A stretch of DNA of 64,000 bases from a bacterium (GTDB lineage: Bacteria > UBA8248). Under the pieces are notes generated by a model. That model was not told the DNA's origin, did not search any database, and saw only the letters and a program-made list of their open reading frames with translations. The position numbers were made by a program, and so were the translations under genes. Every line of letters starts with the position of its first letter. Position 1 is the stretch's first letter. Location: NCBI GenBank assembly GCA_965213625.1, contig CBDBZU010000004.1, positions 736,001 through 800,000 on the forward strand. The letters are read 5' to 3'. Positions 17,593-57,655 of this stretch are shown piece after piece.

Positions 17593-18144
17593 TCAGGGGT
17601 TGCATTTGATAGGTTCCATGCGCGTGCCCTCACACTTGGAAAGCATGCGCTCCAGGACCTCCTTCTCGCGCCGGTCGATCGTCAATCCGTAAGACCGCCG
17701 CACCTCTACCACCCGGTTCGCAAACCAGCATTGGTTTTGAGGAGGAAGCCACTCGGCGGCGTCCTTGCCGCTCTTTTGATATCGGTTGACACTCGGCGAG
17801 GCAAGCGTCAAGTTGCGCAGGTCGCTAGCAAATCGGAGGCGCTCCACCCGGCTGCGTGAACACAGACCCGAGTCGTGCGCCTCGCTGGTAGCAACAATGT
17901 GCTCGATGTCCGTCTCACGTCTGGAAGTAAAGCACTTTTTCGTGTAGGGACCGTACACCGCTCCCAGACGCTTCACGATCTTCCGCTCCAGAGCCTGCGA
18001 ATAACGATAATCCTTCTTCCTGTTGTATGGAGAACAACGAATTTCAGGAGTCACCACAAGGCCGCGCCATGTCTCCGCCATGGAAACGCCAGCCGTCAAC
18101 ACGCACGTCAGCGCGGCGCTGGCGCAGATGCTCCAAATATTCAT
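17593..18144 (-). CDS. Secreted HNH / DUF1524-like nuclease
   Basis: Signal peptide; DIEHIV, NLTLASPSVNRYQKSGKDAAEWLP. Confidence 0.8.
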   Translation of the reverse strand: MNIWSICASAALTCVLTAGVSMAETWRGLVVTPEIRCSPYNRKKDYRYSQALERKIVKRLGAVYGPYTKKCFTSRRETDIEHIVATSEAHDSGLCSRSRVERLRFASDLRNLTLASPSVNRYQKSGKDAAEWLPPQNQCWFANRVVEVRRSYGLTIDRREKEVLERMLSKCEGTRMEPIKCNP

Positions 18145-52801: not shown

Positions 52802-53212
52802 AAAGCAGGGCGGTTCCCGAACCGCCCCTACAGGTTACCGGATTCAACCATTCCGGCATGAGGGCGAAGTCATGAGCAGGGGCGATTGCTCCTCGGGCGA
52901 GCGCGTTTCACTCCCCCTTGAGGGAGGTATTGAAAAAGCCTTTCTCCAGAGAGCAACCCCCCCTACCCCCCCTTGTCAGGGGGGTAAAGGCGAAGCCCCC
53001 CTGGCGAGGGGCTGTTGAAAAAGCCTCGTCTGCGACCCTCGCAAACCGCTAACACCTCTATCCTCACCCTGAGTAGCGGCGAAGCCGCGTATCGAAGGTC
53101 AATTCCGACTAATGAAGGAGGAATTGCATTCTCGCCCCGGCGCGAGGCGTTTGACTCCCCTCGCCCCTCGATACGGCGCGCAAGCGCGCCTACTCGGGAT
53201 GAGGGGGGAGTG
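52802..53212. repeat. Stacked REP/MITE-like palindromes and IS-end-like motifs
   Basis: GGGCGGTTCCCGAACCGCCCCTAC; TCACTCCCCCTTGAGGGAG; CCCCCCTTGTCAGGGGGG; CCTCACCCTGAGTAG...CTACTCGGGATGAGG (53062-53204); two TTGAAAAAGCC ends. Confidence 0.8.
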
Positions 53213-53252
53213 ATTCCCGAACTGCGTCTCACGGGATACAAAATGCAATTCC

Positions 53253-54302
53253 TCATTTCTTCGCTCCAAATGCGCCCTTCACTTGCTTGCCGGAAGAGCT
53301 GAAGGTGAACGTCGCGCCAATAGCCTGATGCGAATCTCCGTAAAATGAACCGCTCATCGTCCCATAATCCGCATTTCGAGTGTGACCCAGGTTCCTGAGG
53401 GACGCGGGAAGACTAATGCAAGGAGACTGGCCGCAGGTCGTGTTGCCCGGATCGCCTGCGTCCGGCTTGACGTCTGAAAAGCTGAACGTGCCATCGGAAT
53501 TAACAATGCCATACCCGGCGTAGCGATGGTTCGGGTCGGTCACGACTTTTTTATACTTCACTTCGCCGTTTTCCAGTACGGCGAATGCCCCTGCTTCGTT
53601 TTCTGTTGCAGTCTCCAGTATGCCGTAACCCGGCATCACCCAACCGACGTTACTGATGCCTTCCGCTTTTCCATCATGCGTCCGGTGCTGCATGCTCCAG
53701 AATCGAATCCTCAGCTGATCGACAGAGCTCCGCGTCCAGAATTTCGCGGGTGAAAACACAGCGCTCACGTTGCCCGTAACCGCCGCGCCTATGTTTCGGC
53801 TATCACTGTCGTTCACCAAGGTTCCCGACAGCTTCCCGCTATAGAAATAATTTGCGATCTCGGTCGCTACGCTTCCGGTTCTCGAACCGCTCACGCTCCA
53901 CGTCGTACTCGCGCCCGATCCGCTTGAACCAATGCTGACGTATCCACCGGAATAATGGCTCCAAGAGCCGTGAGACTGATAATTCGTGTTGCCCGCCTGT
54001 TGCTGTTCTACCTGCGGCTGTAAGTTTTGCGGTTCCGTGTCCTGTTCTGAAAGTTGCGGTATCGCGTTTACAACCGAAACAGAATCATATGATTTGAATA
54101 GCGCCTCCGCATGGCTTGGCGTATCATCGGAAGATGTCGGCGAGGTCAGCGGCAACACGGCCGGCGGGGGGCTTGTCACCAGGCTCCCTCCACCCCCGCC
54201 GCATCCGCTCATCATGAATATCGTGAGATTCAGCGCCGTCCACAACAGGGTCGTTAGAAGTGCTTTTGTTCCTGCTTTTGCAACTTCGCCGCTATTGTAC
54301 AT
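53253..54302 (-). CDS. Surface lipoprotein with TbpB-like C-terminal beta-barrel
   Basis: MSG-C-GGGGGS lipobox; C-terminal MSGSFYGDSHQAIGATF...VKGAFGAKK. Confidence 0.78.
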   Translation of the reverse strand: MYNSGEVAKAGTKALLTTLLWTALNLTIFMMSGCGGGGGSLVTSPPPAVLPLTSPTSSDDTPSHAEALFKSYDSVSVVNAIPQLSEQDTEPQNLQPQVEQQQAGNTNYQSHGSWSHYSGGYVSIGSSGSGASTTWSVSGSRTGSVATEIANYFYSGKLSGTLVNDSDSRNIGAAVTGNVSAVFSPAKFWTRSSVDQLRIRFWSMQHRTHDGKAEGISNVGWVMPGYGILETATENEAGAFAVLENGEVKYKKVVTDPNHRYAGYGIVNSDGTFSFSDVKPDAGDPGNTTCGQSPCISLPASLRNLGHTRNADYGTMSGSFYGDSHQAIGATFTFSSSGKQVKGAFGAKK

Positions 54303-54581
54303 TTTGATTCCCCTTTGCCGTTACGTGGGCGCTCCATCGAGGTTTGCGTTTTTCGCGCCCCCGAGGTATGCGCCCGCAAGGTATGAGCCAATGAGGAATG
54401 CGCATTTTGCCTGTTCGATACCTGTACGCCGCAAATCATAACCAGACAGTGAGTACCTGAATGTATTCTGCGATTCCTCTCTCCCCGGTCGGAAACCGCA
54501 ATCCACAACGCTTTCCGATCTGTCGTATCGTTGTTGCCCCCGCTTAATCGGCGCGTCGAGAAGTTGAATTTCCTCATCCGG

Positions 54582-54690
54582 AAAGCAGGGCGGTTCGCGA
54601 ACCGCCCCTCTCGACGGGAAAAGCTGCAAACACCCGCTCTTCGGGCCTGTTGAAAAAGCCCCCCTGACAAGGGGGGTCGGGGGGTTGCTT
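54582..54690. repeat. REP-like palindromes and IS-end-like motif
   Basis: AAAGCAGGGCGGTTCGCGAACCGCCCC; GGGCCTGTTGAAAAAGCC (54643-54660); CCCCCTGACAAGGGGGG. Confidence 0.78.
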
Positions 54691-54922
54691 AGCCAACCGA
54701 GAGGGGCGACCTCACTACCCCCTAAAAAGAAAACACTTCCAACAACCCACCTTGTTTCAAGCCTGTTGCCGCGTACCCCGAAAGCGGCTACCATTCAGGA
54801 GTCGAAACGCGCAACCTGGAAGATGATGACGCTGTAATGGGGATGGTTTCCCGTCACAGGGGAGCGGGCGCGGCTCACGCCTGCAACCGCTCTTCAGGGG
54901 CGCATCGCAAAAAGGAGAAGGA

Positions 54923-55022
54923 GGGGGTTACTCATTTTTCCCACTCCCGGCCTGAGGACCCAACTCCTACCGGGATTGGTACTGACTACTCCACGAGGTC
55001 AAGCAGCAAATGAGTAACCCCC
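54923..55022. ncRNA. Candidate structured RNA, copy 1 (family unknown)
   Basis: 15-bp closing stem GGGGGTTACTCATTT/AAATGAGTAACCCCC; inner TCCCGG..CCGGGA hairpin; ACTCCACGAGGTCAAGC motif. Confidence 0.5.
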
Positions 55023-55114
55023 AATTCTTCATTCTCATCATTCCGGCCGCAGGTTCGCGATGCGCGCTAGAAACGCATTCCCGCTATTCATCTTCGATAT
55101 GCCGATAAAATAAA

Positions 55115-55210
55115 GGGGGTTACTCATTTGCCTTCCATTCCCTGTCGGTGGGTACAACCGACAGGAAGCGGGTGCGACTCCACGAGGTTAAGCTGCGAAT
55201 GAGTAACCCC
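55115..55210. ncRNA. Candidate structured RNA, copy 2 (family unknown)
   Basis: Same closing stem; inner CCTGTCGGT..ACCGACAGG hairpin; ACTCCACGAGGTTAAGC motif. Confidence 0.5.
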
Positions 55211-56033
55211 CATTTTTCCTCTTTATCTACGTCCGCGCGTTCCGGATACGCCCTTGAAACCCACCCCCTCGGCGCCGCTTCCGCCGTAAAAGCCCGGTAG
55301 CGTCATCGCCCGCAACGTGCGGCATGCGGGAATATCGAGCCTCTCGTTTGAACCCCCGTGAAACGGCATGCGCCACGCTTCCTTTCTCCGCTCCGGTACC
55401 GAAGATTCTCGCGCCTGGATTCATGGCGATGCGCTTCGGGTCGATTCGGCGGCGTCATTGCTTCTTTGTTGAGATTCGCTTCTTCCCCAATTGGCGGAAC
55501 GGTTGCCGTTCCAATTTGACCAATCGTTCATTTTCTTTTATATTGCACCTATCGCATCAGTTTGCCGCTCAAAATGCCGCTTTTTCATGCTTAGGTTGAT
55601 TCAATCATCATGAAGCCGCATGACCCATACAATCCTCCCAATTCCACACGCGGATTGATTCACTCAGGTCCACGGACGAAGTCCGGGCTGGTTGGCATAC
55701 AATCCACGATTTGGAAGAAAAGTGGGTTCCCGCCTATTTCAACTCTCGGGAAGAGTCGTCTTGTATTCAGCGGGCAGCCCGTGAAATCGACCACACATGG
55801 ATTGTATGCCGGGTAAAATAGTGGGGGATTGAACCTGACTTGTCAAGAGGAAAAATGAAATTCTTGAACAGACATTACAATTTCTTTAAGAAACCCCCGT
55901 ATCGTCCGGGAACAAGAGAATCCGAAACCCCCTTCTCCCCCGATTGGCGGTAATCCCGCACCCCGCACACGACTCAAATACACCTGGTGGCGAATCCCGG
56001 CGCGCGGCGCGGGCTTTTTGAACCCTGCTCCGG

Positions 56034-56471
56034 TTACTTCTGCGCCCAGTCGGGAATCTCCTCGCCCTCGGGGACGTACTGCACCAGCTCAATCGCGAGG
56101 CCGCCCGTGGTGGCCGCGTTCGTGAAGGTGATGACCCCGCCGCGCGAGCCGTAGGTGGGCGCGAGGACGAACTCGACGCCCTTCTCCTCCCATTCGGCCA
56201 TCGTGGCCCTCAAGTCGTCAACGACGAAGCATATATGGTGCAGCCCCTCGCCGCGCGCGGCGATGAACCGGTTGAGCGGCGCGTCGGGGTCGCTCATCTC
56301 CACGAGCTCCATCACGGCGCCTTCGGCCTCATAGAAATCGAGCCGGGCGGTGTTGCCGGGCCGCTCATACACCTTTCTTTCGAGAAACTTAAAGCCCAGC
56401 AAATCCGCCATCACGTTCTTCTTTTCATCCAGATTGCTCACGGCGTAGCCCAGGTGATCCACTTTCGGCAT
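56034..56471 (-). CDS. VOC family protein (methylmalonyl-CoA epimerase-like)
   Basis: DHLGYAV, MELVE, GEGLHHICFVVDD, IELVQ. Confidence 0.88.
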   Translation of the reverse strand: MPKVDHLGYAVSNLDEKKNVMADLLGFKFLERKVYERPGNTARLDFYEAEGAVMELVEMSDPDAPLNRFIAARGEGLHHICFVVDDLRATMAEWEEKGVEFVLAPTYGSRGGVITFTNAATTGGLAIELVQYVPEGEEIPDWAQK

Positions 56472-56770
56472 TTTTCAAAACCCCTCTCAGAATCGAGAAA
56501 ACAAAAGACGATAGATGCGACAGACCGCCCGCAGGCTACCGCGTCCCCGCGCCCGCGCGCAAATTCCGGCAGGCCAGGCGAACGCTTTTCGCTCACGGGC
56601 AACAGGCGCCCGCACGAAAATACGCTCATAAAGAAAAAACGGCTCGCTCCAGGCGCCCGTCCGGCGGAGCAGCCACCCCATCGGGGCAGCACACATCGGG
56701 GTGGCCTCACGAAGGAGCGGTATGTATACTCAGCCTCTTTTCCGAAACGAAGAGGATTCTCGACTAACGC

Positions 56771-57655
56771 ATGTCCACCATAATGCCGCTTTTGAACATC
56801 GTCTTCCCGGTCATGGCGGTGATCGGCATCGGCTACTTCTACGGCAGATGGAAAAAGTTCGACCCCAGGGTGCTGGCCGAACTCGTACTGTTCCTGCTCG
56901 CCCCCGCCGTGATGTTCGACGCCCTCGCGCGCCAGAACATCGTGTCGGACGAACTGATCAAGGCGGGCGTCTTCTCCACGCTCATCCAGGTCATCCCGGG
57001 CGGGGTCGCCTGGGTCATCAAGCGCGCGACGGGCATGACGCAGCGCTCCTTCGTGCCCAGCGTGATGCTCATGAACTCCGTCTCGCTGCCCTATCCCCTG
57101 GCGCTTCTGGCCCTCGGCGAGGCGGGCCTGGCCCAGACGGTGCTGCTCTCCATACCGAACGTGTTCATCTCCTTCACGCTGGGGATCATGGCCTACGGCG
57201 GGAGCGCCGACGTCAGGGAGCCGCTCAAGATGCCCGCCCTGTATGCGGCGACGGCGGGCATCATCATCGCGCTGGCGGCGATCCCCGTGCCCAAGTTCAT
57301 CCTGCGCTTCTCGCACCTGACCGGGCGCGGCATGTTCCCGGTGGAGCTCTTCACGCTGGGCTACCGGCTCCGCTCCATCCGGGCGTCGGATTTCAAAATC
57401 AGCCTCATCGTGGCGGGACTTCGGTTCGGACTCGGCTTCGCGCTGGCCTGGGTTCTGTGCGAGGCCTTCGCGCTCACGGGCGCGTTCCGCGCGTCGCTCT
57501 TTTTGATGTCGTGCATGCCGCCCGCCGTGCTAAACTACATTTTCGCCGAGCGCTATAGCGACGAAGGCTCGCTGGCCGCATCCATCGTGTTCACGGGCAC
57601 GGCGCTGAGCCTCGTCACCACGCCCCTGCTCCTGCTCTACCTGGGCGTTTCATAA
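56771..57655 (+). CDS. AEC (auxin efflux carrier) family transporter
   Basis: IVFPV, PAVMF, MNSVSLPYP, MPPAVLNYIFAERY. Confidence 0.9.
   Translation: MSTIMPLLNIVFPVMAVIGIGYFYGRWKKFDPRVLAELVLFLLAPAVMFDALARQNIVSDELIKAGVFSTLIQVIPGGVAWVIKRATGMTQRSFVPSVMLMNSVSLPYPLALLALGEAGLAQTVLLSIPNVFISFTLGIMAYGGSADVREPLKMPALYAATAGIIIALAAIPVPKFILRFSHLTGRGMFPVELFTLGYRLRSIRASDFKISLIVAGLRFGLGFALAWVLCEAFALTGAFRASLFLMSCMPPAVLNYIFAERYSDEGSLAASIVFTGTALSLVTTPLLLLYLGVS

Follow-up and report, generated by a model that had tools for sequence, protein, structure and literature searches.

A Probable Three-Way-Junction RNA Family Linked to TbpB-Like Lipoprotein Genes in an Uncultured Nitrospinota Genus

Results

Two Tandem Folding Units Lie Downstream of a Glyoxalase-Like Gene

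The window analyzed here is a 64,000-nt stretch of contig CBDBZU010000004.1 (assembly GCA_965213625.1, positions 736,001 to 800,000). On its minus strand, a glyoxalase-like gene (56034-56471) and a conserved noncoding block are followed by two units that have no gene of their own: copy B (97 nt, 55115-55211) and, downstream of it on the same strand, copy A (100 nt, 54923-55022). Exactly complementary arms of 14-15 nt, GGGGGTTACTCATT and AATGAGTAACCCCC, are found at 54923-54937, 55008-55022, 55115-55129, and 55197-55211. A first-pass annotation of this DNA had described four alternating arm copies closing two units, each with the same order of internal parts and with inner hairpins that differ in sequence and nevertheless pair, and this description was accurate. 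The units share the block ACTCCACGAGGTYAAGC, their folding on either strand was better than that of shuffled sequences (z −5.1 to −6.9; 0/200 shuffles), and the closing-stem folds are very stable (−47 to −55 kcal/mol). A partial third copy proposed at 54856-54880 did not match the family model described below when 53000-57000 was searched with filters off at E≤1; only the two units scored there. The proposed comparison with known families gave no Rfam 15 match at the gathering score in the whole window, and lowering the threshold to E≤10 over 54300-55900 produced chance-level matches only.

The noncoding block between the glyoxalase-like gene and copy B (55590-55850, minus strand) shows 80-87% identity in 16 related loci. 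A 13-bp stem closes it (55798-55810 with 55694-55706), TTGACA lies at 55842-55847, and an alternative pairing is possible with a second GGATTGTATG at 55626-55635; the block folds with a z of −3.2 and has no Rfam match. On the other side, ~250 nt past copy A on the RNA strand, comes the closest terminator-like hairpin with a T run (54659-54676). This hairpin, CCCCCCTTGTCAGGGGGG plus the T run, belongs to a short repeated element (54603-54686) over which the read depth in a DNA run was 162, compared with 44 in the surroundings. A scan of the minus strand next to A and B found no sigma-70-like promoter, and a GGAAC..GAAGAAT arrangement noticed by eye was dropped as a signal on account of its variable spacing. 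In one sponge-labeled RNA run, in which a small share of sequence words matched, contigs covered 55591-55831 and the interval 56034-56489, which contains the glyoxalase-like gene, with 4 to 39 differences. No contig from that run covered 54923-55211, but contigs of this kind cannot show absence, strand, or ends.

The Units Form a Three-Way Junction on the Minus Strand

The fold is a three-way junction in which a 14-bp closing stem, P1, pairs the 5′ end with the 3′ end. In copy A, the 5′ strand of P1 (GGGGGUUACUCAUU, 55009-55022) and its partner (54923-54936) form an exact inverted repeat. P2 is a 7-bp arm with a loop of 9-11 nt that carries ..CCUCGUG.. or, in one of the types described below (type C), ..CAUCGUCG... 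The loop reads GACCUCGUG in copy A (54992-55000), where it is the complement of CACGAGG and the first of two proposed pairing sites, and AACCUCGUG in copy B (55181-55189); its UCGU core is invariant in 78 distinct sequences. P3 is a long arm with a base flanked by conserved GUA and GAA, supplied in copy A by the junctions J2/3 (CAGUA, 54980-54984) and J3/1 (GAAAA, 54937-54941), and with a tip hairpin of the form GAG-UU(U)GRGUC-CUC. The version in copy A, GAG-UUGGGUC-CUC (54954-54966), belongs to a nearly invariant GAGU..UG.GUCCUC consensus and is the second proposed pairing site, with a putative anti-RBS role. The upper P3 hairpin of copy B, CUGUCGGU-UGUACCC-ACCGACAG (55142-55164), is unlike that of copy A and lacks the GUCCUC motif. 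The unpaired GUA and GAA at the P3 base are conserved in types A, C, and D and in a distant homologue. In the sarcin-ricin or loop-E module, AGUA lies opposite GAA in a bulged-G turn, and the GUA/GAA pair flanking P3 may resemble it. Kissing between the P2 and P3 loops was considered and rejected; by eye, a 4-5 nt match is present in type A only and is not conserved.

The structure is supported by covariation in two alignments. In the first, comprising 34 distinct sequences, 93.2% of cells were paired, compared with at most 53.4% when partners were slid by 1-3 columns; 11 pairs had changed on both sides, and the covariation score was reached by 0/500 shuffles. Because the pattern used to collect the sequences held the arms fixed, construction accounts in part for the invariance of P1 in this alignment. 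A covariance model derived from the alignment was used to find further copies, and the resulting alignment of 84 sequences (78 distinct) had 93.4% of cells paired, with slid partners reaching no more than 59%. Because it was fitted to the model, this larger alignment is biased in the model's favor, but the slid-partner control still separates clearly; that control also corrects for relatedness, which the shuffle control leaves uncorrected. Aligning the copies, as the first-pass annotation suggested, revealed compensatory change in 19 of 36 pairs, of which 5 belong to P1. Types A, B, and C all share one P1 sequence, and the changes at 5 of the 14 P1 pairs appeared once type D copies were added, whose closing stem (GGGGGUUGCCCGUU / AACGGGCARCCCC) differs from the A/B/C stem by compensated changes.

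Wobble pairs identify the strand. Cells with G-U outnumbered those with A-C by 134 to 13 in the first alignment and by 316 to 35 in the larger one, and because of this excess the RNA is placed on the minus strand. The covariance model R2 likewise favored the minus strand, scoring copy A at 98.1 bits there and 28.1 on the plus strand, and copy B at 67.5 and 28.2, respectively. The earlier proposal of a new structured RNA motif therefore holds as to covariation and the lack of an Rfam family, but the strand has to be reversed. Since the RNA lies on the minus strand, the plus-strand GAGGT and ATG that had been read as a translation start are the complement of its P2 loop and closing stem. The features generally expected of a structured noncoding RNA, namely conserved structure, compensatory changes, and a bias to one strand, are all present.

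The Family Is Confined Largely to One Genus

The exact-arm pattern occurs 1-4 times each in 16 of the 22 other genomes of the genus and in 0/18 genomes outside it. Across 185,579 species genomes (one per species), it returned 25 loci, all in genomes of the genus that had already matched. The covariance model matches 17 of 23 genomes of this uncultured Nitrospinota genus, and a second model, run over 51 genomes of the phylum, recovered the same 17 plus one from another family (1/28 outside the genus; 44.5 bits). There is a further copy of the element elsewhere in the genome that contains the window. Types A, B, and C occupy orthologous places across species, with type C at a separate locus. Type A has orthologues in 15 other genomes of the genus. 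Type B copies, present in 8 genomes, always precede A on the RNA strand, at a distance of ~85-90 nt. Type D was found with the covariance model and reaches ~15 copies per genome, and units without a gene form tandem runs. Rfam 15 had nothing at E≤0.1 for types C and D or the distant homologue. Scanning metagenomes for the apical motif yielded 15 loci and no new lineage. Fourteen are close relatives of types C/D; the remaining one, on metagenome contig L133, matched the apical-motif pattern and not the covariance model, and represents either a divergent form or a coincidental match. Record titles of relatives and the label of one RNA run indicate an association with sponges. In the genome containing the window, the region C4:1,919,000-1,962,000 has lipoprotein paralogues interspersed with five copies of the RNA, which span ~35 kb and occur on both strands; ORFs in this region look plasmid- or ICE-like by eye, and it has the appearance of a duplication-rich island.

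Type C and D Copies Follow Lipoprotein Genes

Among the fetched copies, 49/54 of type D and 12/12 of type C lie downstream of a large TbpB-like lipoprotein gene on the same strand; among the five type D exceptions is one locus where an insertion separates the two. The distance from stop codon to RNA is 10-206 nt, mostly about 60-125 nt. The preceding ORFs encode 286-975 aa; a GxFGx C-terminal motif is found in all of them and a lipobox (..LAGCGGGGG) in most. A paralogue in the window (53253-54302, minus strand) has Pfam TbpB_B_D at its C terminus (29.2 bits against a cut-off of 26; E 1.5e-6); Pfam gave no match for four other members of the lipoprotein family. The distant homologue also lies 284 nt after a lipoprotein-type gene, one ending in ...GAFGARKMEE. 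At the one locus read in detail (L058), the stop codon precedes the RNA and a terminator hairpin with a U-rich tail follows it. Of the 23 genomes of the genus, 17 have the RNA and 17 have the lipoprotein family (16 with both, 5 with neither, 1 with the RNA only, and 1 with the gene only); because the genomes are kin, this co-occurrence does not amount to a statistical test. Some genes of the lipoprotein family have no RNA behind them.

Several type D loci carry additional features. In L062-L068, a second conserved structured block of ~135 nt follows the type D RNA by ~15-150 nt; it is closed by GCCGRCACCCC ... GGGGTGTCGGC, then CCTTTC, and is 92% identical between dispersed loci, which exceeds the identity of the genes themselves. 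In genome G011, a tyrosine recombinase gene (L063:1143-2207, minus strand; Pfam Phage_integrase, 1.8e-18) is located ~850 nt upstream of, and divergent from, a two-gene lipoprotein operon, and L062 and L067 (G011 and G012) contain stretches with 78-80% DNA identity to this upstream region. No recombinase of this type was found beside the RNA copies of the genome containing the window, where tblastn gave one partial match, far away.

Orphan Copies Carry a Probable Remnant of a Lost Gene

Copies A and B stand apart from the gene-linked types, and the genes downstream of the pair differ between species. In the six best-matching loci, the last 27 nt of the lipoprotein coding sequence align within the 95 nt upstream of an orphan copy, mainly of type B. 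The best remnant, upstream of type B at locus L022, is 22/27 identical with 0/200 shuffles as good, and 8/29 orphan copies have a remnant that no shuffle (0/200) equaled. In relatives, such a last-codon remnant occupies the spacer between B and A, which in the window spans 55023-55114 and gives a local alignment to ..TTCATCGGCGCGTTCGGGGCGCACAGG; the signal in the window is weak, with 56/200 shuffles as good before A and 7/200 before B. Judging from these alignments, copies A and B are descendants of a gene-linked copy that subsequently lost its gene. The structure and loops of the orphan copies have been kept in at least 15 species, and their retention after loss of the gene argues for a function of the RNA itself. 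An independent action of the orphan RNA, in trans, is very probable.

Conserved Loops Are Complementary to Lipoprotein Ribosome-Binding Regions

Start regions of the lipoprotein genes have an unusual sequence in common, cagGAGGACUCAcuaaAUG, and the operon that ends in type C has AUAUCACGAGACUAGGAGGACUCAAAAGUGAUG. Both conserved loops of the RNA are complementary to such regions. The apical hairpin of types C/D, UUUGAGUCCUC, is complementary over 9 and 11 nt to cagGAGGACUCAcuaaAUG and to the type C-operon site (GGAGGACUCAAAAGUGAUG). The type A apical sequence UGGGUCCUC is the exact complement of GAGGACCCA at the family gene C4:1922046, and, if one wobble is allowed, the same hairpin is also complementary to GAGGACUCA in the start regions of lipoprotein genes. 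The P2 loop CCUCGUG of types A, B, and D (with an added AU in D) is complementary to (AU)CACGAGG, over 9 nt in D and 7 nt in A/B. In lipoprotein leaders, AUCACGAGG, to which CCUCGUGAU is complementary, is located 3-5 nt before GAGGACUC. The type C P2 loop, CAUCGUCG, is complementary to CGACGAUG, found at the same place in the family gene C4:1463714. The RNA therefore has what is looked for in a base-pairing sRNA, conserved unpaired regions complementary to target start regions.

The placement of these matches was assessed across the genome containing the window. Candidate start regions were defined by an SD-like motif, a start codon, and a frame of at least 120 codons, and the resulting 7448 were ranked by the summed length of perfect complement to both loops. 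With the type D loops, the lipoprotein family took ranks 1-2 (one gene, 9+11) and 3 (7+10), and with the type C loops it took rank 1 (8+10). Ten windows had at least 9 nt of complement to the apical motif, and seven of these were assigned to the lipoprotein family. The 5′ regions of the lipoprotein genes are paralogous, so the matches amount to few independent ones, perhaps 3-5 classes. Ranking by RNAduplex energy, in which GC-rich spurious frames dominate, put the best lipoprotein start region at 11/7448 (type C). The motif GAGGACTCA occurs 30 times in the genome, about the calculated chance number, so that what is unusual is its placement alone. In the genus as a whole there are 61 occurrences of the two-part site in 14/23 genomes, compared with 2 control matches, and none in the 6 genomes without the RNA; the extended RBS is likewise concentrated in the RNA-bearing genomes. 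The lipoprotein gene in the window (53253-54302) has no matching start region and was rejected as a cis target. The distant homologue shows only a generic CCUCCC/GGGAGG match to the RBS of its own gene.

The leaders have structure of their own. D-linked leaders carry an upstream AUGAGUCCUC that folds onto the SD, and the leader of the type C operon contains 3-5 tandem hairpin units with the same two-part motif; these SD folds and tandem units indicate a system richer than simple one-to-one pairing. At C4:3373400-3374150 (minus strand; the same in 10 other genomes), leader units AUCACGAGGCUAGAGGACUCAAC ... CCCUCUNCAGUCUCGUGAAU hide an SD-like GAGG, and each is followed by a short AUG frame, with a final half unit supplying the real start region. 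A recurrent ..GAGGACCCACTAACGTGGGGGAAAACC.. motif is found near the type D loci L065, L066, L071, L074, L077, L079, L095, and L096, and within it GAGGACCCA is complementary to the type A apical hairpin. Possible extra targets are the site AUCACGACGAUAGAGAGGACUCGACC before a 1697-codon frame at C4:3426601 (minus strand) and the site GGAGGACUCAAGAAUG before a frame starting with a lipobox-like MKWLTGLAAC at C4:2085201 (minus strand). The start of a 183-codon frame at position 18144 of the window (minus strand; C4:754144) has an 11-nt perfect complement, GAGGACCCAAC, to the type A apical hairpin, a single match that is within chance by estimate.

Discussion

The covarying fold, its strand, and its position behind one gene family lead us to conclude with high confidence that the minus strand of the window encodes members of an undescribed structured RNA family linked to the lipoprotein family. 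The fold is new and well supported, and the surface lipoproteins with which it is associated form a large, fast-diverging TbpB-like family. A surface-level full-text literature search found nothing on the present RNA and no regulatory RNA described from the phylum, and the same was true of Rfam.

What the RNA does is less certain. In the reading that we favor, and whose chances of being right in full, mechanism included, we consider evenly balanced, the tandem units represent an undescribed structured RNA of ~100 nt that acts as an anti-RBS regulator of lipoprotein genes. Units A and B would be free-standing tandem genes, or processed parts of one transcript, their transcription and RNA ends being presumed; types C and D would be carried inside the 3′ UTRs of the lipoprotein multigene family. 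The P3 apical hairpin and the P2 loop are predicted to pair in the cell with a two-part site, AUCACGAG(G) / CGACGAUG and then GAGGACUCA(A), which would cover the lipoprotein Shine-Dalgarno sequence. Pairing would then block or tune translation, and the lipoprotein family would cross-regulate itself through RNA. If so, a multigene surface family is coordinated posttranscriptionally from its own 3′ UTRs. The pairing can be tested with natural variants, in which CCUCGUG/CACGAGG, CAUCGUCG/CGACGAUG, UGAGUCCUC/GAGGACUCA, and UGGGUCCUC/GAGGACCCA are the matched combinations. A bolder version, which we regard as improbable, has the 3′ UTR RNAs docking by two loops on the RBS of sibling genes, with the orphans adding to the pool, so that the family polices itself, for example by allowing one or a few surface variants at a time. 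Were it true, this uncultured Nitrospinota lineage would possess, at the RNA level, an equivalent of antigenic-variation switches.

The closest known parallels to the anti-RBS model are the enterobacterial base-pairing sRNAs CpxQ, SroC, and DapZ, which are 3′ UTR-derived or free-standing sRNAs that occlude ribosome-binding sites. The present RNA resembles 3′ UTR-derived sRNAs in the position of its copies between stop codon and terminator and in conserved loops complementary to Shine-Dalgarno regions. It differs from them in being a many-copy family behind paralogous genes with additional orphan tandem copies, in using two separate loops for a two-part site, and in having no Rfam match; and where those sRNAs have a linear seed followed by a terminator, this one is a closed three-way junction with paired ends.

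The main rival is a protein-binding role, in which the RNA would be the site for a dedicated RNA-binding protein that acts through the 3′ UTRs on stability, localization, or translation, with A and B as titrating decoys. We judge this a minority prospect as the sole explanation, and it may hold alongside the anti-RBS model. It would suit the conservation of the unpaired GUA/GAA and the loops in all types and the distant homologue, the invariant P1 sequence among types A, B, and C, the location of the RNA between stop codon and terminator, and the upkeep of gene-less tandem copies. No candidate protein gene is linked to the loci, there is no TROVE/Ro gene, the tyrosine recombinase lies near some loci of one genome only, and the complementarity of both loops to start regions would be left unexplained. 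Decoys such as CsrB/RsmZ offer a parallel, in that free-standing copies of an mRNA motif could titrate a common partner, but the present RNA has no GGA-loop pattern and no partner protein has been identified. Y RNAs (YrlA) are similar in length (~100 nt), in ending in one long conserved stem, and in having several paralogues per genome. Membership in that class was rejected, as no Ro/TROVE gene (PF05731) was found in the 96.6% complete genome, in a search that matched control genomes, and there was no Rfam Y RNA match.

A simpler role, which we consider quite improbable as a full account, is that of an mRNA 3′-end stabilizer or processing element, an exonuclease stop of the REP/BIME kind with no action in trans. 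The position in the 3′ UTR before a terminator and the stability of the closing stem are what such an element would have, and REP/BIME sequences are likewise repeated, strongly folding elements just after genes. The conservation of loops and junction is far above the needs of a barrier hairpin, gene-less copies are conserved in at least 15 species, and the loops match start regions. The element further differs from REP/BIME in its length of ~100 nt, its three helices, conserved loops, and covariation, and its restriction to one gene family, and it is also unlike the terminator-like repeat at 54659-54676.

It is very improbable that the element acts as DNA, either as a folded recombination site of the attC type or as a homology block for gene conversion or shuffling among lipoprotein paralogues. 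The idea draws on the presence of the element at the 3′ end of each variable gene, on the conserved 5′ ends that these genes also share, on gene-less units in tandem runs, and on the tyrosine recombinase upstream of the L063 operon in one genome, with its flanking stretch recurring in two further loci. Integron attC sites are, like the present element, imperfect palindromes of ~100 nt at gene 3′ ends with strand-biased mismatches, and G-T mismatches are tolerated in folded DNA too. The core sites of attC are RYYYAAC / GTTRRRY, and by eye the arms do not fit them. The copies are also of mixed orientation with no adjoining integron integrase, five clustered ones lying on both strands within 35 kb with no co-oriented array, and the L063-type recombinase is absent beside any copy in the genome containing the window. 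Orthologous positions are stable across species, and the conserved loops and junction favor an RNA fold. Separately, a diversity-generating retroelement or retron was considered and rejected; the genome has a single reverse transcriptase (Pfam RVT_1, C4:3546848), ~177 kb from the nearest copy.

Two RNA classes were set aside on other grounds. The hammerhead core places CUGAUGA ... GAAA ... UH around a three-way junction. The junctions here read N / ..GUA / GAAY, and there was no Rfam ribozyme match. A riboswitch or cis-acting leader, which the first-pass annotation had suggested, is at odds with the position of family members 3′ of genes and with the variation between species of the genes downstream of A/B.

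The two remaining readings, both from the first-pass annotation, are barely credible. As a miniature inverted-repeat transposable element, or small mobile repeat, the unit would have fitting 14-bp terminal inverted repeats, a length of ~100 bp, and several copies, but no target-site duplication is visible by eye in the flanks, types A, B, and C are at the same places in many species, 61/66 gene-linked copies have a fixed orientation behind one gene family, and the compensatory and wobble changes are strand specific. A plus-strand leader or type I toxin-antitoxin-like element that hides small-ORF starts (MSNPQ...) was suggested by GAGG ~10 nt before an ATG in both units, and fares no better against the bit scores (28 on the plus strand versus 98 and 67 on the minus strand) and the A-C mismatches that pile up on the plus strand. 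The two small ORFs are present in the window but are not conserved: in 16 related loci, frames opened by the same ATG run from 10 to 62 aa, have nothing in common past ~8 residues, and owe the 5-8 initial residues that they do share to the conserved stem, which encodes them.
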